A model generated the notes under the pieces. The model ran no database searches. It had not been told where the DNA came from and saw only the letters and a program-made list of their open reading frames with translations. From assembly GCA_937928635.1 (NCBI GenBank), contig CALFWM010000048.1, positions 80,221 to 144,220 of the forward strand: a stretch of DNA of 64,000 nt, given 5' to 3'. The translations under genes and the position numbers were made by a program. The first letter of the stretch is position 1. Every line of letters begins with the position of its first letter. This DNA comes from an uncultured Sulfitobacter sp. Its GTDB lineage: Bacteria > Pseudomonadota > Alphaproteobacteria > Rhodobacterales > Rhodobacteraceae. This document shows, one piece after another, positions 4,388 to 25,178 of the stretch.

Positions 4388-4479
4388 CGCTTTGGCCCTT
4401 CGAACATGCAGCACTTCTGGACATAAGAGCCGCCATTGCATGGGTCTGGTCAAGGGGTGTGAAACCTATTTCAAAAATC

Positions 4480-8384: not shown

Positions 8385-9049
8385 GCGCGCTGAGCCAGCG
8401 GGAACGCAACCGTCAGGCCAATCAGCAAAAGTTGCTGGAAGCGGCGTTGGCCGTGTTTTCTGCCATGGGATATTCCGGCGCGTCGATGGATGCGGTGGCC
8501 GAAGCCGCAGGATTGTCCAAGCCGACATTGTACAAGTATTTTGACAGCAAAGAGACGCTGTTTGCCGCGATGATGCAGGCGCGTCGCGATGATATGCTGA
8601 TGGCCTTTGAGGTTACGCAACCCGGCAATATGGTGCAGCAGTTGCACACCTTTGCCTGGGGGTATGCGCGGACGGTGATGCGCCCGGAGCTGATGACACT
8701 TGCCCGGTTGATCATGGCAGAGGCGCATCGGTTTCCCCAGGTTGGCCGTGCCTATCAGGCATCGGGGCCAGACCGGTTGCTTGAAGGGATGATGACCTAT
8801 CTTGAGGACCAACGCACGGCGGGGTCCTTGGTGTTTCAGGATGCGGAACTGGCGGCGCAGGACCTGTGGGGGTTGATCCTGTCTGCCCCCCGATCCAGAG
8901 CGCTCTATGAACCGGAATGGCAACCGGATGATGCTATTTTGGCGCGCTACATCAACAACGGGCTGCGGGTTTTTTTGCGCGCCTACGCGACAGAGCCAGA
9001 CCAAGTCCTGGCCGCGCTGGAGGCCGAAATCGCTGCATATTCTCAGTAG
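8381..9049 (+). CDS. TetR/AcrR family transcriptional regulator
   Basis: 222 aa. N-terminal HTH 'LLEAALAVFSAMGYSGASMDAVAEAAGLSKPTLYKYFDSKE'. The start overlaps the upstream stop (8381-8384). Confidence 0.85.
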   Translation: MSALSQRERNRQANQQKLLEAALAVFSAMGYSGASMDAVAEAAGLSKPTLYKYFDSKETLFAAMMQARRDDMLMAFEVTQPGNMVQQLHTFAWGYARTVMRPELMTLARLIMAEAHRFPQVGRAYQASGPDRLLEGMMTYLEDQRTAGSLVFQDAELAAQDLWGLILSAPRSRALYEPEWQPDDAILARYINNGLRVFLRAYATEPDQVLAALEAEIAAYSQ

Positions 9050-10482
9050 TGATAAACCGGAGCCCAGTCGGCCCCCCAGATGCCTTTCCAATAGTCCTGC
9101 AACATTGAATTTTGGATCGGCTGTCCGCCGCGCCACAGGTCTGCCTCTGGCCGGGCATGTTGCGTGAAAAAGGCATCAATGCGCGCCGATAAATCAGTGA
9201 CAATCGCCGCCTGATCAGGGTCGTCGGCAAGGTTATGCGTTTCCTCTGGGTCGCGGGCGACATTGTAAAGTGCGTCAGGTATTTCGGGCGCGCCGGGCTG
9301 GTTGAACCGTTTGAAAAACACCCAATCCCTTGTGCGGATGACCCGGGTTTCTTCCTGTTCGGAAAATACCTCATCCGCGCCGGTGGCTGGGGCGTCTCTC
9401 GTTTTGATCCGGCTTGCAAAGGATCGGCTGGGCAATGAGGGATCAGGCGTGCCATCCACGTAGTCGATCAGTGTCGCAAAAAGGTCCATGTTGGAAATGT
9501 AGCGGTCTTGTTTGTGAACCGGAATGTGGCCGGGATGATGTAGGATCATCGGGATCGAATGTGCCGCCAGATGCAGGTTTGACGGAAAGGTTGAGGCCCC
9601 ATGCCCCCAGAACCCGTGATGCCCCAGCGACAGCCCGTGATCTGATGTAAAGATGATTAGGGCATCCGGGTGGGCCGCTTTGATCCGTCCTACGGCCTCA
9701 TCAATCAGCGAAATTTGCGAATAATAATTGCGCAAGGCAGGCAGGTGGTTGGGCGCGCGCATCAGCATCGAAAAATCGAGCCCACCGCCAGAGCCCGCAT
9801 TGACCATGTTGAAATTCGCGACTGCCTCCGGCGAGATGCCACGGCGCGGGACCGTGTTCATCGGGCAGTCATCATACATATCCGCAAATCGGTTGCGTTT
9901 GCCGTCATTGCAGGCGGGCCAATGACCATAAGGGGCCGGGAAGGGGAGGAAGGCAAAAAACGGCTCGTCCTGTGCAGCCATAAACGAAAGCGCCTTGTCG
10001 GTGAAGAAATCGACCGCATGGCCGGGTTCAACGTAGGTCTCACCGTTCTCCATGATTTGATTTTCGTAGAAGGACCGCACATGCCCGTGTTCCATGCTGA
10101 CAAAATCATCCCATCCGGCACCGGGAGTGATGGTTTCGCCCAGATGGTATTTGCCAAACAGCCCCGTGCGGTAGCCTAACTTTTTCATTTCTTCGGGCAG
10201 GGTGTTGAGGCCCGACAAGGCGTGCCAACCCTTTGGCCAATCCGCCATGTTGCGGTCGTCGATCCAGGAATGCACGCCGTGTTGTGACGGCAACATACCT
10301 GTAAGGGTAGAGGCCCGGCAGGGGGAGCAAAAGGAATTTGCGCAAAAAGCGCGCTCAAACTGAACCCCGCCTGCGGCAAGTGCGTCAATGTTTGGGCTGT
10401 GCATTTCGCCATTGCCATAACAACTCAAGGTCGCGGCCTGCTGGTTGTCTGTCATGATCAGGATGACATTGGTGTGGGACAT
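9043..10482 (-). CDS. sulfatase (formylglycine-dependent arylsulfatase family)
   Basis: 479 aa. 'VILIMTDNQ' plus the C-x-P-x-R formylglycine motif 'CSPCRASTLTG'. Its 3' end overlaps the convergent TetR gene by 7 nt. Confidence 0.9.
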   Translation of the reverse strand: MSHTNVILIMTDNQQAATLSCYGNGEMHSPNIDALAAGGVQFERAFCANSFCSPCRASTLTGMLPSQHGVHSWIDDRNMADWPKGWHALSGLNTLPEEMKKLGYRTGLFGKYHLGETITPGAGWDDFVSMEHGHVRSFYENQIMENGETYVEPGHAVDFFTDKALSFMAAQDEPFFAFLPFPAPYGHWPACNDGKRNRFADMYDDCPMNTVPRRGISPEAVANFNMVNAGSGGGLDFSMLMRAPNHLPALRNYYSQISLIDEAVGRIKAAHPDALIIFTSDHGLSLGHHGFWGHGASTFPSNLHLAAHSIPMILHHPGHIPVHKQDRYISNMDLFATLIDYVDGTPDPSLPSRSFASRIKTRDAPATGADEVFSEQEETRVIRTRDWVFFKRFNQPGAPEIPDALYNVARDPEETHNLADDPDQAAIVTDLSARIDAFFTQHARPEADLWRGGQPIQNSMLQDYWKGIWGADWAPVYHY

Positions 10483-10587: not shown

Positions 10588-11253
10588 TTACGGACTGCGG
10601 CGAATGCCATCTATATGAAGCTCAAACCCGTCTTGGATATGGGCCGTAAAGGCCTCCAGCGCGTCACCACGGTCCCCTGTGGCCAGCACGTCTACCAGCG
10701 CCATGTGATTGCCAAGGGAACTGGCAATATCAGCATTTTCAATTGCTGCAAACAGGTGAAACGCCATCGCGCGCCCCCAGATCATATCGAACATTTCCAA
10801 CAGGAACCGGTTGCCTGCCATCTCCATAAAGGCGCGGTGGATGGTGCGGTTGGCGATGAAATAATCCTGCGTCGTCGGGTTTGTCAGTTTTTCGTTGTCC
10901 TGAATAATGCCCCGCAAGGCATCAAGCTCGCTTGGGTCATTGCGCGCAGCAAGAATGCGTGCAGCTTGCCCCTCAATTGCGGCGCGGGCCTGATAGAGCT
11001 CTAGTGTCTCTTCTTCGGTGATCTTGGCCAGCCGGAACCCGCCGGAATTCGCCAGATGCAGCACACCTTCCTTTTCGAGCCGCAACAGCGCCTCGCGCAC
11101 CGGCGTGCGGCTGATGTCCAGTTCAGCCGCCAGTTTTTCCTGTACCAACCGGTCATCCGGCCCTATGTCACGCGACATAATGGCGGCGACCAATTGATCG
11201 TAAACCTCATCCGCCAACCGGCGTCGTTGAGTGGTGATGCTGCGCAGAGCCAT
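10588..11253 (-). CDS. GntR family transcriptional regulator with an FCD (FadR C-terminal) ligand-binding domain
   Basis: ORF track 10588..11373. I trimmed to the ATG at 11253 ('MALRSITTQRRRLADEVYDQL...LAAELDISRTPVREALLRLEKEG'). The discarded 40 codons lie over the operator-containing intergenic region. Confidence 0.85.
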   Translation of the reverse strand: MALRSITTQRRRLADEVYDQLVAAIMSRDIGPDDRLVQEKLAAELDISRTPVREALLRLEKEGVLHLANSGGFRLAKITEEETLELYQARAAIEGQAARILAARNDPSELDALRGIIQDNEKLTNPTTQDYFIANRTIHRAFMEMAGNRFLLEMFDMIWGRAMAFHLFAAIENADIASSLGNHMALVDVLATGDRGDALEAFTAHIQDGFELHIDGIRRSP

Positions 11254-11280
11254 GAGAGCCTCATATTCCGTATTCTGAAC

Positions 11281-11300
11281 ACTGTATACAAAAATACAGT
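11281..11300. promoter_or_regulatory. inverted repeat ACTGTAT-N6-ATACAGT (operator candidate, site A)
   Basis: Read directly. It lies in the 118-bp divergent region between the GntR gene and the GlxB-like gene and shares the CTGTATAC core with sites B-D. Confidence 0.5.
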
Positions 11301-11330
11301 AGGTGCAATGAGGCTCTTGCGTTGGACTGA

Positions 11331-11346
11331 ATACTGTATACAGTAT
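11331..11346. promoter_or_regulatory. perfect 16-bp palindrome ATACTGTATACAGTAT (operator candidate, site B)
   Basis: Read directly, 26 bp upstream of the ATG at 11372. The GT...AC-centred palindrome fits the general shape of GntR-family operators. Confidence 0.55.
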
Positions 11347-11371: not shown

Positions 11372-12316
11372 ATGTGTGGTATCGCAGGACGTATTTTGAA
11401 CGCCCCCGGTCAGGTTGGACGGGACCTTGTTAACTTGATGGATGCGCAAGAGCACCGCGGCGCGGATAGCACCGGATTTGCGGTCTACGGTGCCCCGATG
11501 GAACAAGGCTATGTTTTGCGCGGCATGGGGTTTGACAAGGCGCAGATGGACAGTGATCTGGATGCCTTTCGCCACGTGTTGAAAGACCACGGCAGTGACC
11601 TGATGGGTGACCCACGTATCGTGACGGATGCGGCAAAACATTATTGTTTTCGCATGGAGATCAAAGACCCCAAGAACCTGCAGGCCTGGGTTGCGGATGC
11701 CGACGACCTGACCGACCGGATTGAAGTACAATCCTGCGGACGCTCATTGGAAATTATCAAGGATATCGGTGGCGCAGAGCAGGTCAGCGAAAAGCACAAG
11801 GTGCATGATATGATCGGCACCCATGGGTTGGGCCATGCGCGGCTTGCCACGGAATCAAGTGTCTTGCCCAATGCCAGCCACCCGTTTTGGGCGCGCCCCT
11901 TTTCGGATGTGGCGATTGTGCATAACGGGCAGATCACCGACTACTTTACACAGCGGAATCGGCTGGAGCGGGACGGCTATCGGTTCTTGACGGAAAACGA
12001 CTCTGAATTGATTGCTGTATGGGTGTCAGACCAGATGAAACAGGGCCTGAGCATGCAGCAGGCATTGACCAAGTCGATCAGCGCCATTGATGGTGTCTTT
12101 ACATTCATGATCGCCACGCCGGATGGCATTGGATTTGCCAAAGACCGTTTCGCGATGAAGCCCTTGGTGGTTATCGAACATCCCGGCGAACTGGCCGCCG
12201 CCACCGAAGAACAAGCGGTGCGCCGCGTCTATGTAGATGAAAGTGATGTGATCAATCACGATGGTCCCAGCCTGACGGGCATCTGGGGCGTCGGCAACCG
12301 GAGCATGGCAGCATGA
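11372..12316 (+). CDS. class II (Ntn) glutamine amidotransferase-like subunit, GlxB/MgsA-like (GltB N-terminal domain homologue)
   Basis: 314 aa starting 'MCGIAGR' (N-terminal Cys nucleophile). RBS GGGAG upstream. Confidence 0.85.
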   Translation: MCGIAGRILNAPGQVGRDLVNLMDAQEHRGADSTGFAVYGAPMEQGYVLRGMGFDKAQMDSDLDAFRHVLKDHGSDLMGDPRIVTDAAKHYCFRMEIKDPKNLQAWVADADDLTDRIEVQSCGRSLEIIKDIGGAEQVSEKHKVHDMIGTHGLGHARLATESSVLPNASHPFWARPFSDVAIVHNGQITDYFTQRNRLERDGYRFLTENDSELIAVWVSDQMKQGLSMQQALTKSISAIDGVFTFMIATPDGIGFAKDRFAMKPLVVIEHPGELAAATEEQAVRRVYVDESDVINHDGPSLTGIWGVGNRSMAA

Positions 12317-13005
12317 GCGAGATTGTCATCGACGTTGGCAAACGCCACATCCGCGAGATCAACGAAGAACTGCAAGAGGCCTGCAAGAGTGGCAAGCCGA
12401 TCCGGGTGGTCAATACGCTCAGCCGTCATAACCTTGGGGTCGGTTTGCCCGATGGGGCCGATATCACCTTTGAAGGATCGGTTGGGTACTTTTGTGGCGG
12501 TCTCAATACGGGATCAAAACTCCGCATTGAGCGCAACTCCGGCTGGGCCACGGGCGAGGGCATGGCCAAGGGCCATATCCAGGTCGATGGCCGGGCAGGC
12601 ATGTCCTGCGGTGCGGCAATGATTGGCGGCACGATCCACGTCAAAGGCGACGCAGGGCCGCGGTGTGGTGTGGCCATGAAGGGCGGCAACATCGTGGTTG
12701 AAGGCAAGATTGGCTATCAGTCTGGGTTCATGGCGCATTCCGGCAAAATTATCGCGCTGGGTGGTGCCGGCGAAAGCTGTGCAGATGCCTTGTGGGAAGG
12801 CGAAGTCTGGGTTGCTGGGCCGGTCGAAAGTCTGGGCGTGGATGTAGACGTGGTGGAACCCACCGCCGAAGAGGTGGCTGAGGTGGACGCCATTCTGGAG
12901 CCACTTGGGCTGGTGGATAGCGCGCGGGACTGGCGCAAAATGGTGTCGGGTCAGCGGCTTTGGTATTTTGAAGCGCGCGATGCCAGTGCCTGGCTGATGA
13001 TTTGA
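12313..13005 (+). CDS. GXGXG-motif subunit, GlxC/MgsB-like (GltB C-terminal domain homologue, PF01493-type)
   Basis: 230 aa with repeated 'G.aG...G..m.gG.i.v.G' units ('VDGRAGMSCGAAMIGGTIHVKGDAGPRCGVAMKGGNIVVEG'). ATGA overlap with the upstream gene. Confidence 0.85.
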   Translation: MSEIVIDVGKRHIREINEELQEACKSGKPIRVVNTLSRHNLGVGLPDGADITFEGSVGYFCGGLNTGSKLRIERNSGWATGEGMAKGHIQVDGRAGMSCGAAMIGGTIHVKGDAGPRCGVAMKGGNIVVEGKIGYQSGFMAHSGKIIALGGAGESCADALWEGEVWVAGPVESLGVDVDVVEPTAEEVAEVDAILEPLGLVDSARDWRKMVSGQRLWYFEARDASAWLMI

Positions 13006-13057
13006 ATGGGGCGGTCCGCATGAATGCGCACCCTACGGCAGACGGGGAATCCAAAAC

Positions 13058-14482
13058 ATGAGTGACGATACGAAAAAGCCATATGAATACCCATTCGAAA
13101 TGGCCTCCGAAGATGAAATCCGGTTTCGCGATGCGGGTGCTATTGAGGGCCGCCCTGCCGGTGTGCCTTCCTCTTATGATGAGGGTGGGTCCACCCGCTG
13201 GACCCCTGAAGCCATTTCAGAGGTACACGCGCTGGCACAACTCGGTCGGTATCAGGTGCGCGGGTACAACACGTTTAACAAACAAATGCCGACCTTTGAC
13301 GACCTGACGTTTGTGCCCGCCACCATGACGCGTCTGCCGCTCGAAGGATACCGCGAGAAATGTGAAACTAAAACCATTCTGGGTGGTGGCCGTGGGCTGG
13401 TGGAAAAACCGCTGGAACTGGAAATCCCGATCTACATTGCTTCGATGTCCTTTGGTGCATTGTCTGCATCGGCCAAGGCATCACTTGGTCACGGGGCATC
13501 CAAGGTTGGGACAATGACCTGCACGGGTGAGGGTGGCATGCTGGAGGAAGAACGTGCCGCGTCTTCTCGCTTGCTTTATCAGATGTCGCCCGCGCGCTAC
13601 GGTGTGGATCTTGACCACCTGCGCCGCGCCGATGCGTTGGAAATCGTTGTTGGCCAAGGGGCAAAACCCGGCACGGGCGGGTTGCTGCTGGGGATGAAAG
13701 TTTCCCCGCGGGTGTCCAAAATGCGCACACTGCCTGAGGGGGTTGATCAACGCTCCACCATTCGCCACCCGGACTTTCTGGGCGCTGATGATCTGGCCGT
13801 CAAAATTGAAGAGCTTCGCATCGCGACGAACTATCAGGTGCCTATTTTCATCAAGATGGGCGCAACGCGACCGCGCTTTGACGTGGCCGTGGCAGCCAAG
13901 GCGGGCGCGGATGTTGTTGTGGTGGACGGGGCTGAGGGCGGCACAGGTGCCTCGCCTGAGTTGCTGTTGAACCACACAGGTATTCCGACGATGTCCGCCA
14001 TCCGCGCGGCGCGCGAGGCGCTGGATGAGTGCGGCATGACCGGCAAGGTGTCACTGGTCGCGGCAGGGGGTATCCGCTCTGGTGTGGATGCTGCCAAATG
14101 CATTGCGCTGGGCGCAGATGCGGTGATGATCGGCAATGCGGCGATGGTCGCCATTGGCTGTAACTCGCCCCGCTATGAGGAAGACTACACCGCGCTCGGC
14201 ACCTCCCCCGGCGCATGCCATCACTGCCACACGGGCCGCTGCCCTGTCGGGGTCGCAACACAAGACCCGGAGCTGGAAAAACGTATGGACCCCACAGCTG
14301 GCGCAGAGCGGATCGCGCGCTACCTGACCGCCATGACCATGGAAATCACGGCGCTGGCCAAAGCCTGCGGCAAGTCCTCCGTGCACAACCTTGAGGTTGA
14401 GGATTTGCGCGCGCTGTCCTTGCAGGCGTCGGCGTTTACCGGTGTAAAAATGGCGGGCATTGACCGGGCGTATGACTGGTGA
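13058..14482 (+). CDS. FMN-binding glutamate-synthase-domain subunit, GlxD/MgsC-like (PF01645-type)
   Basis: 474 aa. 'IASMSFGALS', 'VVGQGAKPGTGG', 'VVVDGAEGGTGASP' and 'LVAAGGIRSG' are classic GltB FMN-domain motifs. Confidence 0.85.
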   Translation: MSDDTKKPYEYPFEMASEDEIRFRDAGAIEGRPAGVPSSYDEGGSTRWTPEAISEVHALAQLGRYQVRGYNTFNKQMPTFDDLTFVPATMTRLPLEGYREKCETKTILGGGRGLVEKPLELEIPIYIASMSFGALSASAKASLGHGASKVGTMTCTGEGGMLEEERAASSRLLYQMSPARYGVDLDHLRRADALEIVVGQGAKPGTGGLLLGMKVSPRVSKMRTLPEGVDQRSTIRHPDFLGADDLAVKIEELRIATNYQVPIFIKMGATRPRFDVAVAAKAGADVVVVDGAEGGTGASPELLLNHTGIPTMSAIRAAREALDECGMTGKVSLVAAGGIRSGVDAAKCIALGADAVMIGNAAMVAIGCNSPRYEEDYTALGTSPGACHHCHTGRCPVGVATQDPELEKRMDPTAGAERIARYLTAMTMEITALAKACGKSSVHNLEVEDLRALSLQASAFTGVKMAGIDRAYDW

Positions 14483-15174
14483 AAATCGCGGTTCTGGATC
14501 TGTGTATCTGGCTGCCTGAATATCAGGACGGCCAGCCGAAGTTTGGCGATCTGCTTGCCACATGGGCCGCGCGGGGGCTGCCGGATGCGGCGTTTAGCGT
14601 TGTGGACGTGGTGGAGGGTGAAGCCCTGCCAGCGGTCGATGCCTTTGATGGCTTCATCTTATCAGGATCAGATAAGGGTGTTTATGATGACACGCCGTGG
14701 ATGGGCCCGCTGCGCGATTGGCTGATCAGCGCAAAGGAGGCCGGCAAACCACTCTTTGGGGTCTGTTTTGGGCATCAGCTGATGGCGGATGTTTTTGGTG
14801 GCAAGGCAGAGAAAGTCAGCGCGCCTGAGGTTGGTGTGCGCCGGTTTCAGATCGACGGGCAGGATGTGTCTGGTTATGTCTGGCATCAGGATCAGGTGAC
14901 AAAAGTGCCGCCCGGTGCGTCGGTGATTGGGTCGGCGGATTACTGTCCTGTCGCGGCCCTGTCTTACGATTTTCCAGCGATGTCGGTGCAGTTTCACCCT
15001 GAGTATCCGCCGGAATATGTGTCCGACTTTCTTCGCCGCAGTGGGTCTGAGGTATTGCCGCCGGATTTGACCGGCCCCGCGATCAAACAGTTCGAAGACA
15101 GTGATGTTGAAGCGGATTTGTTTGCCGCTCAGATGGCCGCCTTTTTCAACGAGAGCGTGAACGCAAGCCCTTAA
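14479..15174 (+). CDS. class I glutamine amidotransferase-like protein (candidate gamma-glutamyl-amide hydrolase)
   Basis: 231 aa. The GTG start overlaps the upstream TGA. Nucleophile elbow 'GVCFGHQ' and 'QFHPE' (Cys-His-Glu triad pattern). Confidence 0.8.
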   Translation: MKIAVLDLCIWLPEYQDGQPKFGDLLATWAARGLPDAAFSVVDVVEGEALPAVDAFDGFILSGSDKGVYDDTPWMGPLRDWLISAKEAGKPLFGVCFGHQLMADVFGGKAEKVSAPEVGVRRFQIDGQDVSGYVWHQDQVTKVPPGASVIGSADYCPVAALSYDFPAMSVQFHPEYPPEYVSDFLRRSGSEVLPPDLTGPAIKQFEDSDVEADLFAAQMAAFFNESVNASP

Positions 15175-15322
15175 AGCGTCCGACCGTTACCCTGAAACGT
15201 ACTGTATTGCCGATGTCCCGAGCGCGCGAAGCCTGGCAGGGTATCGGCGATCCAAGTTTAGGGGCGGGCGCAGTTTGTTTAACGGATGGAGCGGCTGCGC
15301 CGCACGCGATTGGTTTTGGAAT

Positions 15323-15339
15323 GAGGGGCGCTGCCCCTC
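15323..15339. terminator. hairpin GAGGGGC-GCT-GCCCCTC between convergent genes
   Basis: Read directly; a 7-bp perfect GC-rich stem in the 15175-15382 convergent gap. There are no strong U-tracts. Confidence 0.3.
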
Positions 15340-15354
15340 AAACTCCCCGGGAAT

Positions 15355-15371
15355 GTTAAGGCCAGAAAGAG
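15355..15371. repeat. 17-nt motif GTTAAGGCCAGAAAGAG, copy 1 (copy 2 at 43121-43137)
   Basis: Exact 17-nt identity read directly. Both copies are in the same orientation, 11-13 nt beyond the stop codon of a minus-strand flavoenzyme gene. Confidence 0.3.
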
Positions 15372-15382
15372 TGGGGGGCCGG

Positions 15383-16525
15383 CTATCGGCCAGAAGGGCT
15401 CTCTTTGGGCGACAGCTTTTTTCGTCCAGCGATCTTGAACCGGTCGGCTGTGCCGTATTCGCCGAGCGCGACGCCAGCGGTGAAGTCGCCAAAAACAGGG
15501 CCGTGTTTGAACAGGTGACCAGAGCAGCCGCCTGCGAGCAGGACGTTTTCATGCTCCGGGTGCCAATCCACGATGAAATGAGTGTCAGGCGTCAGGATGA
15601 CCTGATTGAACTTGCTGTCCACCACCCGTTGTCCTTCCAGCCCTGGCAGCCGGTGGCGGATATATTGGCGGGTCTTAGTCAGCGATGCCTTTTCGATAAG
15701 ACGTTCATCATTGTTGATATCAATCGGTGTGTTGGGGATCACCACGGCGGCTTTGACCCCTGACCCCTCGGACGAGGGAATTCCAAAGCTGCCTTGCCCA
15801 TGGTCAATCCAGCAGGGCATATTTTCCATATCGAACGCATCTGAACCATCCGGGGTAGAGGTATAGAGCACATTGATGCCCATGATCGCAGAGATAGGTT
15901 TAATGGTGCGCGGAAACAGTTCAGCCATCCAGGCACCGGGCGCCATGACGATAACGTCGGCCATGATTGGCCGCCCTTCCAGCATGGGACGTTCCCGTGC
16001 ATCGGTCGTGACGGTGCCGCGTTTAACCACACCGCCTGCGCGTTTGAACAGATCAAGGGCAGTGATCACGCAGCGATGGGCCATCAGTAACCCGGCTTCT
16101 GGCTCAAACAGCGCATAGCTGATCTCGTCCACTTTGAACTGGGGAAAGCGGTCGTGCACCTCATCCGGGGTGAATTTGTAATAGGGCACGCCGACCTTGT
16201 CGAAAGTCTCAGATGTCGCGTCCTCCCAATGGCAATGCCCTTGGGTGGCAAGGATCAGTGCGCCGCATTCATACATCAGATTCTGGCCGCTCTCGGCCTG
16301 TAGCTCCAGCCACATGTCACGGGATTGACGGACCCAGCGTGTGTAAAATTCATCCCGGCCCGAAATTGCCCGGATCACCCGATTGTAGTCAGAGGAGGCC
16401 GCCCGTGCATGGCCCGGTTCCCAACGGTCAATCAGGGTGACCTGTTCGCCGCGCCGCTGCATGTGCAGGGCTGTCATAACCCCGGCAATACCGCCGCCCA
16501 CAACCACACATGTATTTCGTGCCAT
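15383..16525 (-). CDS. DAO-family FAD-dependent oxidoreductase (sarcosine-oxidase-beta / N-alkyl-amino-acid oxidase-like)
   Basis: ORF track 15383..16657. I trimmed to the ATG at 16525 ('MARNTCVVVGGGIAGVMTA', FAD GxGxxG at the N-terminus). RBS AAGGA upstream. Confidence 0.85.
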   Translation of the reverse strand: MARNTCVVVGGGIAGVMTALHMQRRGEQVTLIDRWEPGHARAASSDYNRVIRAISGRDEFYTRWVRQSRDMWLELQAESGQNLMYECGALILATQGHCHWEDATSETFDKVGVPYYKFTPDEVHDRFPQFKVDEISYALFEPEAGLLMAHRCVITALDLFKRAGGVVKRGTVTTDARERPMLEGRPIMADVIVMAPGAWMAELFPRTIKPISAIMGINVLYTSTPDGSDAFDMENMPCWIDHGQGSFGIPSSEGSGVKAAVVIPNTPIDINNDERLIEKASLTKTRQYIRHRLPGLEGQRVVDSKFNQVILTPDTHFIVDWHPEHENVLLAGGCSGHLFKHGPVFGDFTAGVALGEYGTADRFKIAGRKKLSPKESPSGR

Positions 16526-16562
16526 GACGATAATTTTCCTTGCCGAGTCACTGCATTCATGG

Positions 16563-16578
16563 ATACTGTATACAGAAT
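16563..16578. promoter_or_regulatory. ATACTGTATACAGAAT (15/16 match to the palindrome; operator candidate, site C)
   Basis: Read directly. It is centred in the 96-bp divergent region between the FAD oxidoreductase (start 16525) and the GS-like gene (start 16622). Confidence 0.5.
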
Positions 16579-16621
16579 ACACGCAAAGACAATCAGATTC
16601 TCTGACAGGGAGAGGGACGAG

Positions 16622-17914
16622 ATGAGCCAAGATTTCAGCCTGCCGGAAGGCACCCATACCGTCATTCTGGGGTTAGGTGACTTAAACGGCATTATGCGTG
16701 GCAAACGGATACCGGCCTCGCATTGGGAAACGATTTGCAAAGAGGGCAATGCCCTCTCTGCCGCGATGATGGCCATCGACAGCAATTGCGACGTCTGGGA
16801 CACGCCTTATGTCAACTTCGACAACGGGTATCCGGACATGCATATGTTTCCCATGACCAAGCCTGTGGCTGTGCCATGGGAAGAAGGTGTCGCGGTCTGT
16901 TTTGCGCGCGGTGAAGGGATGGATCACAAACCTGTCCCGATTGATCCACGCAATGCGCTGGTGCGCCAGGTGGAACGGGCCCGGGAAATGGGCTTTGACG
17001 TCTCCACCGGGGCCGAATTGGAGTTTTACCTGCTCGACCCGGAAACCGGTCAGCCGCGTGATCAGGGCATTCAGGTCTATGGCCTTGGTCGTGCCGCGCG
17101 GATGGAGCATATCGTTGGGCCAATCCGCCGTCAGATCAATGAATGCGGCATCCCGATTGAGCAATCCAACCCAGAATATGCGCCCGGTCAGGTTGAGGTA
17201 AACATCCGCTACGATGAAGCGTTGCTAAGTGCGGACCGTGTTGTGCTGTTTAAATCACTGGTGCGCCAGTTGGGCATTGCGCATGGTTATCTTGCAACCT
17301 TCATGCCCAAACCGTTCTTTGAACAATCCGGTAATGGTTTCCACGTGCACTATTCGTTGTGGAAAGATGGCAAAAATGCCTTTGCTGATGGTGGTAAACT
17401 CAACGAATTGGGCAAGAACTTTACCGCCGGTCTGCAGAAACGCATGGGAGAGGCGGCGATCTGTGGGTCACCCACACCCAACGGGTTCCGCCGTCGCCAG
17501 GCTTATACCTTCTGCCCTATCAATACGTCCTGGGGTTATGACAACCGCACCGTTGGGCTGCGGATTATCGAAGGGTCGGACACCGCTGTGCGTGTCGAAA
17601 AACGGGATGCAGGAGCGGATGCAAATCCCTACCTGCTCTTGGCCACCGATCTGGCCGCAGGGCTAGATGGCATTGAACAGGGCATGCAGCCGACGGAGCC
17701 AACCCTGGGCAATGCTTATGAAGATTTTAATGGCGATCCTATCCCCACCACGGCACCGGATGCCATTGCGCAGGCACGCGGGTCTGACTGGTTGAAGGAC
17801 GTCATGGGTGAAACCCTTTGGGAACTTTACCTGCAAATGGCCGAGCGCGAAGTTGGCTTTGTTGAAGAGCAGGTCACGCCCGTCGAAACCGCCCGCTATT
17901 TGAGGACCCTGTAG
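16622..17914 (+). CDS. glutamine synthetase-family protein (GmaS/GlnT-like); candidate gamma-glutamyl-amine synthetase
   Basis: ORF track 16325..17914. I trimmed to the ATG at 16622 (RBS GGGAGAGGGA at 16608-16617). GS catalytic-domain pattern: 'ELEFYL', 'EYAPGQVEVNIRY', 'ATFMPKP...SGNGFHVHYSLW', 'RVEKRDAGADANPYL'. Confidence 0.85.
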   Translation: MSQDFSLPEGTHTVILGLGDLNGIMRGKRIPASHWETICKEGNALSAAMMAIDSNCDVWDTPYVNFDNGYPDMHMFPMTKPVAVPWEEGVAVCFARGEGMDHKPVPIDPRNALVRQVERAREMGFDVSTGAELEFYLLDPETGQPRDQGIQVYGLGRAARMEHIVGPIRRQINECGIPIEQSNPEYAPGQVEVNIRYDEALLSADRVVLFKSLVRQLGIAHGYLATFMPKPFFEQSGNGFHVHYSLWKDGKNAFADGGKLNELGKNFTAGLQKRMGEAAICGSPTPNGFRRRQAYTFCPINTSWGYDNRTVGLRIIEGSDTAVRVEKRDAGADANPYLLLATDLAAGLDGIEQGMQPTEPTLGNAYEDFNGDPIPTTAPDAIAQARGSDWLKDVMGETLWELYLQMAEREVGFVEEQVTPVETARYLRTL

Positions 17915-17915: not shown

Positions 17916-18185
17916 ATGCAGATCGGCCTTGTCAAAGGAACGCTGACTGCGACCGCAAAGGCCGAACGGCTGACGGGACAAAAGCTGATGGTCGTTGACG
18001 TGATCGACGCTGCTGGCAAGGTCATCGTGCCCTCCTTGGTCGCGGTGGACACCTGCGGGGCCGGCGTTGGCGATGGCGTAATGCTGACCCAAGGGTCGGC
18101 TGCGCGTATGGCCGCTGGCTTGTCCGCCGCCCCCATTGACCTGGCAATTATCGCGGTTGTTGACCGCGTCTCTGTTGATACCTGA
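17916..18185 (+). CDS. BMC vertex pentamer, BMC-P (EutN/CcmL/PduN family, PF03319)
   Basis: 89 aa. '[13 protein letters not shown]...KLMVVDVID...[23 protein letters not shown]...[11 protein letters not shown]' aligns along its length with E. coli EutN as I remember it. The ATG lies 1 nt after the GS-like stop. Confidence 0.9.
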
Positions 18186-18217: not shown

Positions 18218-18526
18218 ATGGCAACTCCTGCACCGGGCCAGATGGCCCTTGGAATGATTGAAACACGTGGCCTCATCGGCGCAATTGAAGCGGCGGACGC
18301 CATGGTAAAAGCGGCCAGCGTCACCATCGTGGGCCAGACCAAGGCAGGCGGTGGGTTGGTCACAACCCTTGTGCGCGGCGAAGTGGGTGCCGTCAAAGCG
18401 GCCACCGATGCAGGCGCAACAGCGGCCAACAAGGTCGGTGATGTCGTGAGTGTTCATGTGATCGCGCGCCCCCATGATGAGCTTGAGGCGATCATCGACA
18501 GCCTTGGCGCTGGTTCCGCAGCTTAA
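18218..18526 (+). CDS. BMC shell hexamer, BMC-H (PduA/EutM/CcmK family, PF00936)
   Basis: 102 aa. '[61 protein letters not shown]...VHVIARPH' is near-canonical. The pore loop reads KAGGG. Confidence 0.92.
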
Positions 18527-18542: not shown

Positions 18543-19727
18543 ATGCCCGCTGATTTTGAGGATTTCGCACGCGCTGCCTCACGCAGCCGTTCCGACAGCG
18601 TTCCTGCATCCGCTCCCCTGTCAAAGGTTGCGGTGCTGGGCGGCGGTCCGGATGCGCGTTTGCTAGCGGCCTTGTCCTCGGCGGCAGATTGCGAGGTCAC
18701 GCTGTTCTCGGCCTACGGGCGTGAGTTGGAGCTGATGCGGGCATCCTCTGGCATCGCGTTGCGGGGTGCCGGACCCATTGGCAGCTATCAGGTGGACCGC
18801 GGTGCGGCCTCAATTGCCCTGACCGCAGAACTCGACGCGGCGGTACAGGGGGCGGAGGTGATTTTTCTAACCGGGCCCATTCACAAACAACGCACATACG
18901 CGATGGTCCTGGCGGACCATCTGGTAGATGGCCAAATTTTGGTGCTGGCACCGGGGCGGTCATTGGGGGCGGTTGAATCCGCCTGGATGCTGCGATTGGG
19001 TGGTTGCACGGCGGATGTGACCTTGGTTGAGGTACAAGGACTGCCCTATTGGTATGTGACTGAAGGGGCGACTTTGTATTTGTCCAGCTCTGCCCCTATG
19101 GCTGCATCAACCTTGCCCCGTGGTCGCGGTGGCGTGCTGGATCAGCTAAAATCAATCCTGCCAAATATTGTTAGTACAGAATCTGTATTGGCCTCTGGCT
19201 TCAGTGATCTTTCGGCGGCTGTCGAAATCCCGGCACTTGTGCTGGGTGGGGCTGGTCTGGCACAGGGTGGAGTCAATGTTCCGATGGGTGGAACACCATT
19301 GGCGCAGAACCAGACCTTTGCTGCCTTGATCGGGTCTGATCAGTATCGTTTGATTGAAAGTCTCGCAGAAGAACGCCGTGCCGTAGCCCAAGCCTTTGGC
19401 GTGCGTGGTTTGCCGGATAACGATGCCTGGATTGCGACATATGCTGGTGCCGAGAAAGGCGAAGGTGCACGCCCCGTACCGGACCGTGACACTGCCCGTG
19501 CGATGCTGCGGGATGGGGTTATTGGATCGCTTGTGCCGCTTGCGTCAGCAGCGGAACTGGCCGACATCGACGTTCCCCAAACCCGTGCGCTGATGGCCAT
19601 GACAGGGGCGATTCTGGATGCTGATGTTGCGGCATCCGGTCGGCGGCTGGATACGATGGGCATCACGGAGCGCAATCTGGATGCTGCGCGCCGTACCTTT
19701 GATGCGCTCACGGCAGGAGGCCGCTGA
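18543..19727 (+). CDS. opine (octopine/nopaline) dehydrogenase-family protein with atypical motifs and an N-terminal tail
   Basis: 394 aa. 'ILPNIVSTESVLASGFSDLSAAVEIPALVLG', 'AEERRAVAQAFGVRGLP' and 'GSLVPLASAAELADIDVPQTRAL' parallel opine-dehydrogenase family blocks from memory. The Rossmann motif reads 'VLGGGPDA'. Confidence 0.7.
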   Translation: MPADFEDFARAASRSRSDSVPASAPLSKVAVLGGGPDARLLAALSSAADCEVTLFSAYGRELELMRASSGIALRGAGPIGSYQVDRGAASIALTAELDAAVQGAEVIFLTGPIHKQRTYAMVLADHLVDGQILVLAPGRSLGAVESAWMLRLGGCTADVTLVEVQGLPYWYVTEGATLYLSSSAPMAASTLPRGRGGVLDQLKSILPNIVSTESVLASGFSDLSAAVEIPALVLGGAGLAQGGVNVPMGGTPLAQNQTFAALIGSDQYRLIESLAEERRAVAQAFGVRGLPDNDAWIATYAGAEKGEGARPVPDRDTARAMLRDGVIGSLVPLASAAELADIDVPQTRALMAMTGAILDADVAASGRRLDTMGITERNLDAARRTFDALTAGGR

Positions 19728-21103
19728 TGGACAATGACCTTAAATCCATCGCCGCCGCGCGCCGCGCTGCTGAAAGTGCCTTTGACGCCTATCAAAAATT
19801 TCTGGGCACGGACCCTGCCCATGTAGACGCCATCGTTGACGCCATGGCCCGCGCGATTGAACCCGAGGCGGAGCGCCTTGGCCAGCTTGCCGTAGATGAA
19901 ACGGGGTATGGGAACGTGCCGGACAAACGGGTCAAAAACCTGTTCAACTCCCTGTCGGTGGCGGAGTATCTGCGCGACATCACAACCCTAGGCATGCTCT
20001 GGCGCGATGACGCGACCAAGATTGCCGCCTTTGGTGAACCGATGGGCGTTGTGGCAGCCTTGATCCCGGTCACCAATCCGACCTCTACGATTATCTTTAA
20101 AGTGTTGAGCGCGGTGAAGGCAGGCAATGCGATCATCTGCGCGCCCCACCCGCGCGGTGTACGTGCGGGTCTGGAAACAACCAGGATCATGGCGGAGGTG
20201 GCCGAACAGATGGGTGCCCCCAAGGGGCTGATCCAATGTATGGATCAGGTGACCATTCAGGGCACCGCAGAACTGATGCGACACCGACGGATGTCTGTGG
20301 TGATGGCAACCGGCGGGCCCGCGATGGTCAAGGCAGCCTATTCCAGCGGTAAACCCACGTTGGCCGTAGGGGCCGGGAATGTACCCTGCTACGTGCACAA
20401 GTCGAAAAAGAACGACATTGGTGAAGTGGCCGAAATGATCGTCACCTCCAAGAGTTTTGATTATGGGACGGCCTGTGTTTCAGAACAGGCGGTCATTGCA
20501 GACCCCGAGGTCGCGCGTGATTTGCGCCATGAGATGAAACTGAAAGGTGCCTATTTCTGCACGCCCGCGGAAGCTGACCGATTGGCAGCTGTAATTTTTA
20601 CCGGCAAGCAAGCGATGAACCCGGAGCGGGTCGGGCAATCTCCGCAAGCCCTGGCAGATGCCGCAGGATTTTCGATCCCGCCCCGCACGCGGTGTCTGGT
20701 GTCTGAGGAAACCGAGATTGGTTGGGAACGCCCCCTGTCAGCGGAAAAGTTAAACCCGGTTCTGGCCTTTTATGAGGCAAAGAATTCAGAGCACGGTCTG
20801 GAATTGGCGCAACGCATTGCGCGGTTTGAGGGCTGGGGGCATTCGTCTGTTCTGCATAGTGACGACCCTGAAATTGTCGCCAAATTTGCCACCATCCCCA
20901 CCGGGCGCGTGTTGGTGAACACACCCGCAATCATGGGCGGCATGGGGTATTCGACCGATCTAGAGCCGTCATTCATGTTGGGGACAGGCACATGGTCCGG
21001 GTCAATTACCTCTGACAATGTTACAGCACTCCATCTGATCAACATCAAGCGGGTGGCATATGAGAGCCGACCCTGGCGCGACATCTACAAGGAATACGGG
21101 TAG
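19727..21103 (+). CDS. CoA-acylating aldehyde dehydrogenase (EutE/PduP-like metabolosome core AldDH)
   Basis: 458 aa. 'LAVDETGYGNVPDK', 'ATGGPAMVKAAYSSGKP' and the catalytic-Cys context 'FDYGTACVSEQAVIAD'. TGATG overlap with the upstream gene. Confidence 0.85.
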   Translation: MDNDLKSIAAARRAAESAFDAYQKFLGTDPAHVDAIVDAMARAIEPEAERLGQLAVDETGYGNVPDKRVKNLFNSLSVAEYLRDITTLGMLWRDDATKIAAFGEPMGVVAALIPVTNPTSTIIFKVLSAVKAGNAIICAPHPRGVRAGLETTRIMAEVAEQMGAPKGLIQCMDQVTIQGTAELMRHRRMSVVMATGGPAMVKAAYSSGKPTLAVGAGNVPCYVHKSKKNDIGEVAEMIVTSKSFDYGTACVSEQAVIADPEVARDLRHEMKLKGAYFCTPAEADRLAAVIFTGKQAMNPERVGQSPQALADAAGFSIPPRTRCLVSEETEIGWERPLSAEKLNPVLAFYEAKNSEHGLELAQRIARFEGWGHSSVLHSDDPEIVAKFATIPTGRVLVNTPAIMGGMGYSTDLEPSFMLGTGTWSGSITSDNVTALHLINIKRVAYESRPWRDIYKEYG

Positions 21104-21160: not shown

Positions 21161-21784
21161 ATGTCTGAAATTACCATTCGCGCGTTGATGCAGATCGACA
21201 ATCTGCAACCCAAATTCGCGGCCTACAATGGGGCCACTGTGCAGGGTTCCGTACCGCTTTCCGGGGATACGGTCCTGATCGGGGAATTTGCGCCGGGCAA
21301 TGGTGTGTTTTCGCTGATTGATCGCGCGCTGAAGGCGTCAAGCGTTGAGGCGACCACGCAGATGGTCGAACGGGAGTTTGGCTTTTTCATCCTCCGTTCC
21401 CCCTCAAACGCTGAGGTCTCCGCCGCGCGCGATGCGATGCTGGCTGAACTGGGTGCGTCGATGTCGGACCGTTTGAAACCAGCGATCACAAACACCCAGA
21501 TCATCACCAGCGTAGAGCCCTATCAGGCACAATTGCTCAACAAATGGCGAAAGGGGTCGCTGTTGGTGCCGGGGCAGACGCTTGGCATTATTGAATGCGC
21601 CCCTGCGGCCTATATTTCCATCGCCGCAAATGAGGCGGAAAAGGCCGCAGATATTGACATGGTTGAGGTCCGCGCGGTGGGTCGTTTTGGACGACTGTTT
21701 ATCTCCGGCACAGAAAATTCAGTGCAGGATGCCATGGACGCCGCCGTAACGGCGATTGAGGCTGTTGAGGGCCGCGCTGAATGA
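21161..21784 (+). CDS. tandem-domain BMC shell protein, BMC-T (EutL/PduB-like topology)
   Basis: 207 aa. There are two BMC-like halves: 'TVLIGEFAPGNGVFSLIDRALKASSVEA...FGFFILRSPSNAEVSAARDAM' and 'TLGIIECAPAAYISIAANEAEKAADIDMVEV...GRLFISGTENSVQDAMDAAVTAIE'. Each is preceded by a roughly 35-aa segment, as in EutL. Confidence 0.8.
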   Translation: MSEITIRALMQIDNLQPKFAAYNGATVQGSVPLSGDTVLIGEFAPGNGVFSLIDRALKASSVEATTQMVEREFGFFILRSPSNAEVSAARDAMLAELGASMSDRLKPAITNTQIITSVEPYQAQLLNKWRKGSLLVPGQTLGIIECAPAAYISIAANEAEKAADIDMVEVRAVGRFGRLFISGTENSVQDAMDAAVTAIEAVEGRAE

Positions 21785-22962
21785 GTACAGGCCGCGTCAT
21801 AGGCACTGACACGGTGGAGGATGCACGCCGTCGCAGCCGGTTGATCGTCGAGGTCATGCCCGGCGATATTGTCACTGCCCTCGCGCGGGAATCAGCCGAA
21901 CGTTTTGGCCTGAAACTGGTCGATGGCCCGGTTGAGATGCCTGCTCCGGTGCGCACAGACGGGGCCACATCCATGCGCCGTACGCTTTATCGGCGTGCAC
22001 CCAAATGGCAAGCCCCCGCACGCCGTCCGCGCAAAGCCCGCCAGTTGGGCAAGCTGGCCCTGATTGGCGCAGGTGGTGTGGGTGGCAACATCGCACATTT
22101 GGCCGCGATGGCGGATATGGCGCAAGAAATTGCGTTGATCGACATCGCGCCGGGTTTGGCGGCAGCGACTGCGTTGGATCTAAACCACGCAAGCGGGATA
22201 ACCGGTGCGGCCGGGCGATGCTTGGGTGGTGAAACGCTCGATCTGGTTGCGGGGGCGGAGGTTGTTGTTGTCACTGCCGGACGCGCACGTGGGCCTGGCA
22301 TGACGCGGGCCGATTTGATTGACGTGAATGCACGTGTGATCCGCGCGGCGGGTGAGGCGATCCGCTCTGAAGCACCAGATGCGGTTGTGATTGTCGTGAC
22401 CAACCCACTGGATGAAATGACCGTTAAGATGTTGCGTGCCACCGGGTTCCCGCGGGAGCGCGTCTTGGGCATGGCAGGTACGCTGGATTCCTCTCGCTTC
22501 CGGCATGCCTTGGCACGTGCGGCAGGGGTTGATCCGGCAGATGTTGATGCGATCACCCTGGGAAGCCATGGCGAAGAAATGGCCCCCATTCCGTCCCGTG
22601 CCACGATCAAGGGGCGACCGCTGGAGGTGTTCCTGAGCACCGATCAGATCGAGACCTGTGTGCAGGACGCGATCACCGGTGGGGGTCAGGTTGTCGCCTT
22701 GAAAAAGATGGGGTCCGCGACCATCGCGCCGGCCCATGCCTCTATCGAGTTGATCGACCACATGCGCGATGCGCGGTCGGGCCCTGTTCCGGTTTCTGTG
22801 ATGCTTGAGGGTGAATATGGGATTGAGGGTGTCGTACTGGGCGTACCGGCACATTTGGGTGCGCGCGGATTTGTTAAGGTTGAGGAATTGCGCCTGACTG
22901 ATTCCGAAACTGCAGGGCTGCATGCCGCAGCAGAAGCGATCCGCGCGCGGTTGGGTTTATGA
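21781..22962 (+). CDS. LDH-like malate dehydrogenase-family enzyme with an about 90-aa N-terminal extension
   Basis: 393 aa. From residue ~91: 'KLALIGAGGVGGNIA', 'VTAGRARGPGMTRADL', 'VVTNPLDEM', 'GTLDSSRFR', 'LGSHGEEM'. Residues 1-88 lie outside the MDH/LDH fold. ATGA overlap with the BMC-T gene. Confidence 0.85.
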   Translation: MSTGRVIGTDTVEDARRRSRLIVEVMPGDIVTALARESAERFGLKLVDGPVEMPAPVRTDGATSMRRTLYRRAPKWQAPARRPRKARQLGKLALIGAGGVGGNIAHLAAMADMAQEIALIDIAPGLAAATALDLNHASGITGAAGRCLGGETLDLVAGAEVVVVTAGRARGPGMTRADLIDVNARVIRAAGEAIRSEAPDAVVIVVTNPLDEMTVKMLRATGFPRERVLGMAGTLDSSRFRHALARAAGVDPADVDAITLGSHGEEMAPIPSRATIKGRPLEVFLSTDQIETCVQDAITGGGQVVALKKMGSATIAPAHASIELIDHMRDARSGPVPVSVMLEGEYGIEGVVLGVPAHLGARGFVKVEELRLTDSETAGLHAAAEAIRARLGL

Positions 22963-23366: not shown

Positions 23367-23446
23367 TGTATTCCGGTCGTGCAATGGCGTGCACCACCTC
23401 TCCTTACGGGTTTCATTTTGAACCACCCCGCTCTAGCCTGTCACAC

Positions 23447-25171: not shown

Positions 25172-25178
25172 ACCTGCT

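Follow-up and report, generated by a model that had tools for sequence, protein, structure and literature searches.

A MIC2-type microcompartment locus in Sulfitobacter and a proposed gamma-glutamyl amine route to its aldehyde

Among the bacterial microcompartment (BMC) loci catalogued by Sutter, Melnicki, Schulz, Woyke & Kerfeld (2021, Nat Commun, Supplementary Data 2), the MIC2 type is an uncharacterised one for which no function is given; 22 loci are listed, with hosts in the Alpha- and Gammaproteobacteria. The catalogued contents are an aldehyde dehydrogenase (AldDH) without an encapsulation peptide (EP), a pfam02866 lactate/malate dehydrogenase (LDH/MDH) with an N-terminal extension, a pfam00120 glutamine synthetase (GS), and a protein of the 6-phosphogluconate dehydrogenase (6PGDH) superfamily that carries a short N-terminal helix. 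Here we describe a MIC2 locus in a 64,000-nucleotide stretch of DNA from an uncultured Sulfitobacter sp. (GenBank assembly GCA_937928635.1, contig CALFWM010000048.1, positions 80,221 to 144,220; called the window below, with coordinates counted from its first letter), together with a linked set of genes that are paralogous to those of N-methylglutamate (NMG) synthase and may help to supply the microcompartment with its aldehyde.

MIC2 belongs to the metabolosomes that have an “incomplete core” and lack a signature enzyme, a group whose function has gone unassigned since 2014. Other metabolosomes obtain their aldehyde by way of a lyase, an aldolase or a glycyl-radical enzyme; this paradigm, and the chemistry of GmaS, MgsABC and Mgd in the NMG pathway, are established knowledge. 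The NMG cluster on a plasmid of Paracoccus alcaliphilus, which we compared by BLAST along with the E. coli puu cluster and the ipuC region of P. aurescens TC1, comprises dmm, mgsABC, glnT (the counterpart of gmaS), a soxBDAG-like set (the counterpart of mgdABCD), folD and purU. The cluster of Acidithiobacillus caldus served as a second canonical NMG reference. An earlier note on the window, made from the sequence alone, had singled out six genes at 11372-17914 as a paralogue of this pathway and as the candidate aldehyde generator of the adjacent BMC; all six open reading frames (ORFs) were found at those coordinates when the ORFs of the window were checked against Pfam and NCBIfam profiles.

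The BMC type and the membership of its GS gene are already known, having been published in 2021. What is new relative to the literature we found is the linkage to an NMG synthase paralogue, the recognition of a monomeric-sarcosine-oxidase (MSOX)-like enzyme, a Rid-family protein and an importer as parts of the locus, a common operator, and a functional hypothesis. In the supplementary files of Sutter et al. (2021), a search found no pfam01645 or pfam01493 (MgsC- and MgsB-like) and no pfam01042 (Rid), and the MIC2 entry does not list the MSOX-like DAO-family enzyme, the ABC importer or the GntR regulator. Our literature search found no functional study of a MIC2 BMC or of an N-alkylglutamate pathway for C2 or larger amines, and the term N-ethylglutamate was not found in the papers returned.

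The MIC2 locus, its relatives and a common predicted operator

By gene and domain content, the BMC locus of the window is of the MIC2 type and matches the published description point by point. Its shell genes are the minimal MIC2 set of one BMC-P, the pentamer vertex protein (17916-18185, plus strand; Pfam EutN_CcmL, E 5.6e-24), one BMC-H, the hexamer shell protein (18218-18526, plus; Pfam BMC, E 1.5e-25), and one BMC-T(dp), a tandem-domain, CcmP/CsoS1D-like trimer (21161-21784, plus; Pfam BMC; NCBIfam CcmP-like model 204 bits, under its cutoff) whose orthologues carry CsoS1D_N and BMC domains. The enzymes are also those of the catalogue. They are a CoA-acylating AldDH (19727-21103, plus), a pfam02866 dehydrogenase whose N-terminus carries an additional domain of about 90 residues (21781-22962, plus; Ldh_1_N/C matched from residue 91), a 6PGDH-superfamily protein with an EP-like N-terminal helix, which is an NAD(P) oxidoreductase with the fold of opine dehydrogenases (opine-DH; 18543-19727, plus), and a pfam00120 GS-like, putative gamma-glutamyl ligase, which is the first gene of the BMC operon (16622-17914, plus; Gln-synt_C, E 1.3e-86). 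The operon continues to a Rid-family gene (22959-23366, plus; Ribonuc_L-PSP). The run from GS to Rid is tight, with overlaps or gaps of at most 57 nt and only one base between the GS stop and the BMC-P start; the shell genes and the acylating AldDH are the neighbours that the earlier note had described.

Divergent from this operon lies the MSOX-like FAD enzyme (15383-16525, minus; Pfam DAO), referred to below as DAO. We take its start at 16525 as right, because extension of the ORF to 16657 would run it into the GS gene and because called orthologues are 378-379 residues long; with this start, the divergent intergenic region between DAO and GS measures 96 bp. On the far side of DAO, three homologues of the GltB domains follow one another on the plus strand: an MgsA-like class II amidotransferase of the N-terminal nucleophile (Ntn) type (11372-12316; GATase_6/7), an MgsB-like GXGXG protein (12313-13005; Pfam GXGXG), which overlaps mgsA by 4 nt, and an MgsC-like protein corresponding to the FMN domain of glutamate synthase (13058-14482; Glu_synthase, E 3.6e-99). 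The same order of subunits in one operon is the layout of the three-subunit NMG synthase. They are followed by an accessory gene for a stand-alone class I glutamine-amidotransferase-like hydrolase (GATase1; 14479-15174, plus; Pfam GATase), and preceded by that of a 221-residue transcription regulator of the GntR/FCD family (10588-11253, minus; Pfam GntR and FCD). The regulator’s ORF is extendable to 11373, but called orthologues have 221-223 residues, and the ATG at 11253 is probably the true start.

The arrangement is widespread. A scan with one genome per species gave 147 genomes with a relative of the opine-DH-like protein, compared with the 22 loci of the catalogue. The protein has 593 homologues, the nearest named ones being from Sulfitobacter (82%), Ruegeria and Aliishimia, and its relatives occur in at least 147 species-level genomes, mostly of marine Rhodobacterales, Hyphomicrobiales and Granulosicoccaceae. 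For counts of synteny, 80 of the 147 loci were taken with 10-kb flanks and searched by tblastn with the proteins of the window. The GS, BMC-H and opine-DH-like genes are present in all 80, and the order of DAO on the minus strand followed by GS, BMC-P, BMC-H, opine-DH-like, AldDH, BMC-T, MDH-like and Rid is preserved as far as each contig extends. DAO was detected in 78, the contigs of the remaining two stopping before it, while BMC-P was undetected in seven. The ABC importer genes usually lie downstream of the BMC operon and are inverted in two loci. One of the related loci, from Ca. Rhodobacter oscarellae (= Rhodobacter lobularis, AIOL_ tags; our L066), is itself a catalogued MIC2 member and has the same gene order. 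A gene arrangement that recurs in this way in 80 species-level genomes is far beyond chance.

The link to the NMG synthase paralogue is more variable. GntR and MgsABC adjoin the locus in 45 cases and are partly visible in four more (45-49 of about 67 informative loci); in 18 loci they are not found within about 7 kb upstream of DAO. These 18 fall into several separate similarity groups, and a search for alternative conserved genes upstream of DAO in them found none. Both of the non-adjacent genomes that could be traced (two of the 18) encode GntR-MgsABC elsewhere. One of them (L016) carries a GntR-MgsABC-GATase1 module on a different contig (L081). In the other, a Rhizobiaceae metagenome-assembled genome (MAG; L023), GntR-MgsABC lies about 14-17 kb away on the same contig (L089, 14919-16945), separated from the MIC2 locus by an insertion with IS21/Mu-type transposase genes, which shows how the two modules become unlinked. 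Wherever MgsABC is present in the related loci, GntR adjoins mgsA; in one locus (L077) the module has moved and been inverted, yet is still linked. Close MgsA homologues in Hoeflea and Ruegeria atlantica likewise adjoin DAO-GS-BMC. Within the module, MgsC is among the most conserved genes of the locus (81-98% identity across loci) and GATase1 the least conserved (44-71%), the latter being absent from nine loci that have MgsABC.

The separate transcription units appear to be tied together by a predicted operator. A perfect 16-bp palindrome, ATACTGTATACAGTAT, lies in the GntR-mgsA intergenic region at 11331-11346, 25 bp before the mgsA start, and has three matches in the window at up to three mismatches, against 0.04 expected. 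The near-identical copies are ATACTGTATACAGAAT at 16563-16578, in the middle of the DAO/GS divergent intergenic region, and GTACTGTATACAGGAT at 23827-23842, upstream of the ABC transporter genes and just before the gene of the substrate-binding protein (SBP). When a 14-bp core was searched at up to two mismatches through 1.46 Mb of related loci, it was almost confined to these three promoter positions, that is, before mgsA (by 20-40 bp), before GS (by 40-60 bp, in nearly all 80 loci) and before the SBP gene; the site before GS is kept even in loci without adjacent GntR and MgsABC. A second, weaker operator-like element, CACTGTATACAAAAATACAGTAGG, stands at about 11276-11302, nearer the GntR start, and two related loci (L005 and L036) have a similar second site, about 88-90 bp upstream of mgsA; such a site may serve autoregulation of the GntR regulator. 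A palindrome that is kept at three promoters across loci therefore suggests that mgsABC, DAO, the GS-BMC operon and the importer form one predicted regulon, and the regulator that would recognise it is presumably the conserved GntR/FCD protein. A scan of the sequence for consensus promoters and terminators gave counts not above those of shuffled sequence.

Enzymes and importer of the locus

The MgsABC-like trio is a genuine but deep paralogue of canonical NMG synthase, as judged by sequence comparison. All three proteins align over their full lengths with those of the Paracoccus cluster, at 29% identity for MgsA, 35% for MgsB (MgsB/GlxC) and 54% for MgsC, which bears out the paralogy claimed at the outset, and close homologues of the MgsA-like protein carry the JGI label “methylamine---glutamate N-methyltransferase subunit A”. 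The MgsA-like protein starts MCGIAG, so that the N-terminal nucleophile Cys2 is present, and this N-terminus is invariant in 45 orthologues. GATase1, too, has its Cys (GVCFGHQ) and HPE motifs conserved. Among the three subunits, divergence is greatest in MgsA, the putative site of gamma-glutamyl amide recognition, and smallest in MgsC, on the glutamate/2-oxoglutarate side, a gradient that we infer to be as a change of amine substrate predicts.

Two features of the MgsC-like protein were examined. Around residues 369-396 (window 14160-14260) it keeps the three 3Fe-4S cysteines of E. coli GltB, plus one extra. The canonical MgsC of A. caldus keeps the Fe-S cysteines and that of Paracoccus alcaliphilus has lost all of them, so NMG synthases differ in their capacity to hold an Fe-S cluster; as a canonical MgsC has the motif, we rejected it as a MIC2-specific sign of an external electron partner. 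The other feature is an N-terminal extension of about 33 residues relative to canonical MgsC (window 13058-13190; PYEYPF…GRPAGVPSSYDEGGSTRW), which is highly conserved across genera. It was rejected as an EP because it is conserved over its whole length, without a variable linker.

The GS-like ligase, in whose orthologues the hallmark GS motifs are conserved, is nearest in sequence to ligases that gamma-glutamylate short alkylamines. Its nearest relative outside MIC2 (62% identity) is a GS on the plasmid pML2037 of Mesorhizobium loti, whose neighbours (a P450, a 2Fe-2S ferredoxin protein, an APC permease and a PuuD-like hydrolase) have the layout of the isopropylamine (ipu) pathway; among named relatives, IpuC of P. 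aurescens TC1 comes next (36%). It is not a GmaS: identity to the Paracoccus enzyme is 33%, the score against TIGR03105 (type III glutamate-ammonia ligase, GlnT/GmaS) is 228.6 bits against a cutoff of 469.6, and the solved GmaS structures 7cql and 9qur give 123-124 bits, versus 205 for the best solved relative. Matches to PuuA (32.5% identity; 195 bits against a 650-bit model cutoff) and to the NCBIfam GlnA models likewise stay under the cutoffs. The earlier suggestion of a substrate other than methylamine, which a GmaS-like ligase would have undercut, is strengthened by these comparisons.

The cluster on pML2037 (L085, 10059-29278) adjoins genes for a 3-sulfinopropanoyl-CoA desulfinase, a CoA-transferase, a sulfite/sulfate-exporter-like protein, propionyl-CoA carboxylase and methylmalonyl-CoA mutase. 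These neighbours may hint at C3 amines or organosulfur amines.

The heterotetrameric dehydrogenase MgdABCD (SoxBDAG-like), folD and purU are absent from the 64-kb window, in agreement with what had been said of MgdABCD, and Mgd and folate genes were undetected among the genes scored in the related loci. A canonical MgdA query matches only a distant protein of the window, at 1967-4453. The canonical clusters of our reference set (L086 and L090) do have MgdABCD together with folate-linked genes.

DAO is, from its sequence, a member of the MSOX/MTOX family that has kept its carboxylate-binding residues. Its best solved relative is MSOX (116 bits), and it scores 188 bits against the NCBIfam SolA model, under the 257-bit cutoff; there is no BLAST match to PuuB or MgdA. 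Equivalents of MSOX R49, R52, K265 and K348 are present, with the aligned residues conserved in 60 orthologues; Arg52 and Lys348 are taken here to bind the substrate carboxylate. The position of Cys315, which we assume to be the covalent flavin link in MSOX, is occupied by Asn, so that this attachment is lacking, and that of His269 by Val. Compared with MSOX, the protein is extended at neither terminus. The residues at its C-terminal end (…KLSPKESPSGR; window 15383-15415) are invariant in 60 orthologues, where about 81% of the whole protein is conserved, and could be a motif for protein-protein contact or shell targeting.

AldDH scores 489 bits against TIGR02518 (EutH_ACDH, acetaldehyde dehydrogenase (acetylating)), under the 620-bit cutoff, and 462 bits against the AdhE N-terminal model; the catalytic Cys is conserved, and among profile models the enzyme is closest to acetaldehyde-type acylating enzymes. 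The MDH-like enzyme exceeds the cutoff of the NCBIfam MDH subfamily (306 against 283 bits) and has Arg at the malate-type specificity position, in the motif AGRARGPGMTRADL; this Arg presumably selects dicarboxylic 2-oxoacids, and the sequence would fit an NAD+-recycling role with oxaloacetate and malate.

The opine-DH-like protein matches N-(1-D-carboxyethyl)-L-norvaline dehydrogenase (CENDH; 1bg6) over its full length (phmmer E 4e-15). Its AlphaFold model (pLDDT 72.5), for which CENDH (TM 0.71/0.79) and octopine dehydrogenase (ODH) are the top Foldseek matches, has the two-domain opine-DH fold. Residues 2-12 are predicted to form a helix with invariant Phe5 and Phe8, which precedes an unconserved linker of low confidence; in the model, this helix fits the EP suggested in the catalogue of Sutter et al. 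(2021).

Downstream of the BMC operon, five plus-strand genes at 23891-28507 encode a HAAT-family ABC importer (Pfam Peripla_BP_6, two BPD_transp_2 and two ABC_tran). They are the SBP gene (23891-25171), which has a ribosome-binding site and an ATG at 23891, two permease genes (25232-26083 and 26084-26992) and two ATPase genes (27051-27809 and 27806-28507). The permeases score best to UrtB/UrtC or LivM, all under cutoff, and comparison of the SBP with solved structures and NCBIfam gave only weak generic matches (about 40 bits), none of them to a known amine-binding protein.

Between the Rid gene and the operator of the importer lies a 129-residue ORF (23366-23755) with no Pfam match. It is detectable in Sulfitobacter-like and a few other loci only (33-61% identity), and may be neither a real nor an essential gene. 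The locus is flanked by an amidase gene (28510-29964, minus; NCBIfam PRK06170 498 bits, just under the 503-bit cutoff) and a sulfatase gene (9043-10482, minus). Further off, 1967-4453 (minus) encodes an 828-residue protein with DAO, FAO_M and GCV_T domains, of the dimethylglycine/sarcosine-dehydrogenase type. All three were considered as members of the locus and dropped; they are not conserved with MIC2 loci elsewhere, and we therefore place them outside it. A megablast search of the cluster against plasmids gave no match. Elsewhere in the window (47459-56738) is a polysaccharide-type cluster with a sulfotransferase, an ABC-2 exporter and several glycosyltransferases, bracketed by two large proteins with RTX calcium-binding repeats (44679-47051, plus, and 56735-59521, minus).

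A proposed route from amine to aldehyde, and its rivals

We propose that the locus is a MIC2 metabolosome with a cytosolic feeder pathway, apparently in a single GntR/FCD-controlled regulon, in which an amine is converted by way of a gamma-glutamyl amide and an N-alkylglutamate to the aldehyde consumed in the BMC; we give this scheme about an even chance of being correct. Uptake, probably through the linked ABC importer, would bring in a small primary amine bearing a CH2-NH2 group, or else a precursor of such an amine. The GS-like ligase would join the amine to the gamma-carboxyl of glutamate at the expense of ATP. In the MgsABC-like complex, MgsA would then split the gamma-glutamyl amide and the FMN subunit would re-attach the amine to the glutamate/2-oxoglutarate skeleton, giving an N-alkylglutamate and ammonia, as in the conversion of gamma-glutamylmethylamide to NMG. 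The N-alkylglutamate would be a charged, non-volatile “masked aldehyde”, from which oxidation of the alkyl C-N bond would release glutamate and a C2 or larger aldehyde. Either the sarcosine-oxidase-like DAO or the EP-tagged opine-DH-fold enzyme inside the shell, or both, might carry out this step. Within the shell, the acylating AldDH would turn the aldehyde into acyl-CoA, and the encapsulated MDH-like enzyme would regenerate NAD+. Our best guess for the substrate is a short aliphatic amine or amino alcohol other than methylamine, although, given the type of importer, what the cell takes up from outside may instead be an amide or an N-substituted amino acid. A more specific version, which we consider possible but on balance doubtful, would make MIC2 the first metabolosome to draw its aldehyde from an ATP-driven gamma-glutamylation/N-alkylglutamate relay, with a shell-permeant N-alkylglutamate whose aldehyde is freed only inside, by the opine-DH-fold enzyme with its His-to-Glu change.

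The idea of an amine-to-aldehyde feeder, put forward in the earlier note, thus stands in part. The conserved pairing of GS with DAO and the common predicted operator speak for it, and the expected link in expression between these genes and the BMC genes is upheld as a prediction, from one conserved operator before mgsA, DAO/GS and the transporter. Several points weigh on the other side. MgsABC is not adjacent in about a quarter of the loci, and two of the 18 genomes concerned were checked; co-regulation is deduced from a predicted operator. DAO appears to have the right chemistry for aldehyde release and no recognisable EP, so that an aldehyde of its making would arise outside the shell, whereas the opine-DH-fold enzyme has a predicted EP and an altered active site. 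In the latter, the catalytic His is replaced by an invariant Glu (AVMHP in CENDH aligns to AAVEIP), with the Arg and Asp partners kept; with the residue roles that we take from the ODH and CENDH literature (His with Asp and Arg partners), the protein is therefore a remodelled member and not a standard opine dehydrogenase. Classical opine dehydrogenases, moreover, cleave on the keto-acid side, which here would return the amine. The Rid protein (46 bits against the 106-bit cutoff of TIGR00004) tentatively lacks the RidA Arg105, with PVL in place of PAR in an alignment made by eye to the RidA motif; this Arg is assumed to bind the carboxylate of imino acids. The scheme leaves GATase1, a dispensable gene, without a role, and there is no phosphotransacylase for CoA recycling. 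The importer, of the urea/branched-chain-amino-acid type, is not an obvious amine carrier, and an amide or an N-substituted amino acid would be a more fitting cargo for it than a volatile amine.

It is precisely GATase1 that finds a clear role in a scheme of the Puu kind, and only there. Here the GS-like ligase would gamma-glutamylate a diamine or amino alcohol and so protect its nitrogen, DAO or an NAD-dependent dehydrogenase would oxidise the other end, AldDH would oxidise the gamma-glutamylated aldehyde, and GATase1 would remove the glutamyl group, leaving MgsABC to accessory nitrogen salvage. GS, DAO, AldDH and GATase1 formally make up a PuuA/B/C/D set, and GS and DAO are a near-invariant pair whose loci do not always have MgsABC adjacent. 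The comparison of the proteins themselves points elsewhere, since BLAST finds no match of DAO to PuuB or of GATase1 to PuuD, the GS-like ligase is far under the PuuA model cutoff at 32.5% identity, and AldDH is of the CoA-acylating BMC type, with 20% identity to PuuC over a partial alignment; an assignment to the Puu type was rejected for this want of PuuA/B/C/D orthologues. GATase1, besides, is the least conserved gene and often absent, the transporter is not of the PotD/PotF type, and MgsABC shares the common operator and was retained in both unlinked genomes checked. We regard a Puu-like route as unlikely. Similarly improbable in our judgment is the import of an N-substituted amino acid, opine-like or N-alkyl, that would be cleaved by DAO with Rid and/or by the opine-DH-fold enzyme into an amino acid or amine and a carbonyl compound for the BMC, with GS and MgsABC processing the amine. 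The SBP is of a type with solved amino-acid-binding relatives (weak matches), DAO keeps the carboxylate-binding Arg and Lys of sarcosine oxidase, and modelling confirms the opine-DH fold of the opine-DH-like protein. Many carriers, such as L066, are MAGs from marine invertebrate or sponge-type sources, where opines are common. Nevertheless, the opine-DH-like protein lacks the catalytic His, classical opine cleavage yields pyruvate and not an aldehyde that requires a BMC, and an ATP-dependent GS as the first gene of the shell operon would go unexplained.

The remaining alternatives deny any special connection between the feeder genes and the BMC. If the MgsABC/GATase1 block happened to lie nearby as a separate operon, functionally independent of the BMC, its separate transcription unit, its non-adjacency in 18 loci and its omission from the 2021 catalogue would be accounted for, but one and the same operator sits across genera at the promoters of mgsA, GS and the SBP gene. 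All the close MgsA homologues examined for their context are in MIC2 genomes, and the module can move or invert and still stay linked, as in L077; we consider a chance neighbourhood very unlikely. Ordinary methylamine use through the NMG pathway, merely beside a BMC, is harder still to credit, despite the resemblance of the trio and the GS-like gene to a gmaS-mgsABC set and the JGI label on close mgsA homologues. The low identities of the GS-like (33% to GmaS), MgsA-like (29%) and MgsB-like (35%) proteins to the canonical ones, the sub-cutoff models (228 against 470 bits for TIGR03105, with solved GmaS at 123-124 bits against 205 for the best relative) and the lack of MgdABCD, folD and purU in the window therefore lead us to exclude plain methylamine use. 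The GS gene, further, lies inside the shell operon under an operator common to the GS, mgsA and transporter promoters, and formaldehyde would not feed an acylating AldDH of the acetaldehyde type. The gamma-glutamyl/N-alkylglutamate scheme remains the reading that we prefer.

Comparison with known systems

The links of MIC2 to an NMG-synthase set, an MSOX-like enzyme, an importer and a regulator bring the function of this orphan metabolosome within reach of experiments on cultured marine carriers, and the candidate operator and regulator pair gives a handle for finding the inducer. Strains in culture that carry the locus include Sulfitobacter aestuariivivens TSTF-M16, S. sediminilitoris JBTF-M27, Ruegeria profundi ZGT108, Falsiruegeria mediterranea M17 and Aliishimia ponticola MYP11. 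If the proposed scheme is true, it would widen the chemistry known both for BMCs and for gamma-glutamyl/N-alkylglutamate amine pathways, and extend the NMG pathway from C1 to C2 and larger amines. It would also give the widespread marine bacteria of the Roseobacter group a high-affinity amine sink, and thus a route for the use of dissolved organic nitrogen at sea.

One related system is the RMM1 aminoacetone/1-amino-2-propanol BMC of Mycobacterium and Rhodococcus, whose AldDH is reported to be the nearest characterised clade to that of MIC2 (Sutter et al. 2021). RMM1 resembles the present locus as a metabolosome that is fed by a small amine, has an incomplete core and is accompanied by a GntR regulator, but it uses an aminotransferase, kinase and phospholyase route and is without GS, MgsABC and DAO. 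The E. coli Puu pathway has in common with the proposed route an ATP-dependent gamma-glutamylation followed by oxidation, and a GATase1-type hydrolase is present in both; the proteins show no orthology, and the AldDH of the locus belongs to a different, acylating class.

The isopropylamine pathway, with the gamma-glutamylisopropylamide synthetase IpuC, a P450 and a hydrolase, provides the nearest named relatives of the GS-like ligase. The locus differs in having no P450/ferredoxin system, and downstream of the ligase it has MgsABC, DAO and the BMC instead of a hydroxylation. The NMG pathway of Paracoccus alcaliphilus (p429813) and Acidithiobacillus caldus (mpAca1.1) shares with the locus a GS-family ligase, three split GltB-domain proteins in the same order, the Ntn Cys and an MgsC that is 54% identical. 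In place of the heterotetrameric Mgd, folD and purU, the locus has a monomeric MSOX-like flavoenzyme and a BMC with an acylating AldDH.

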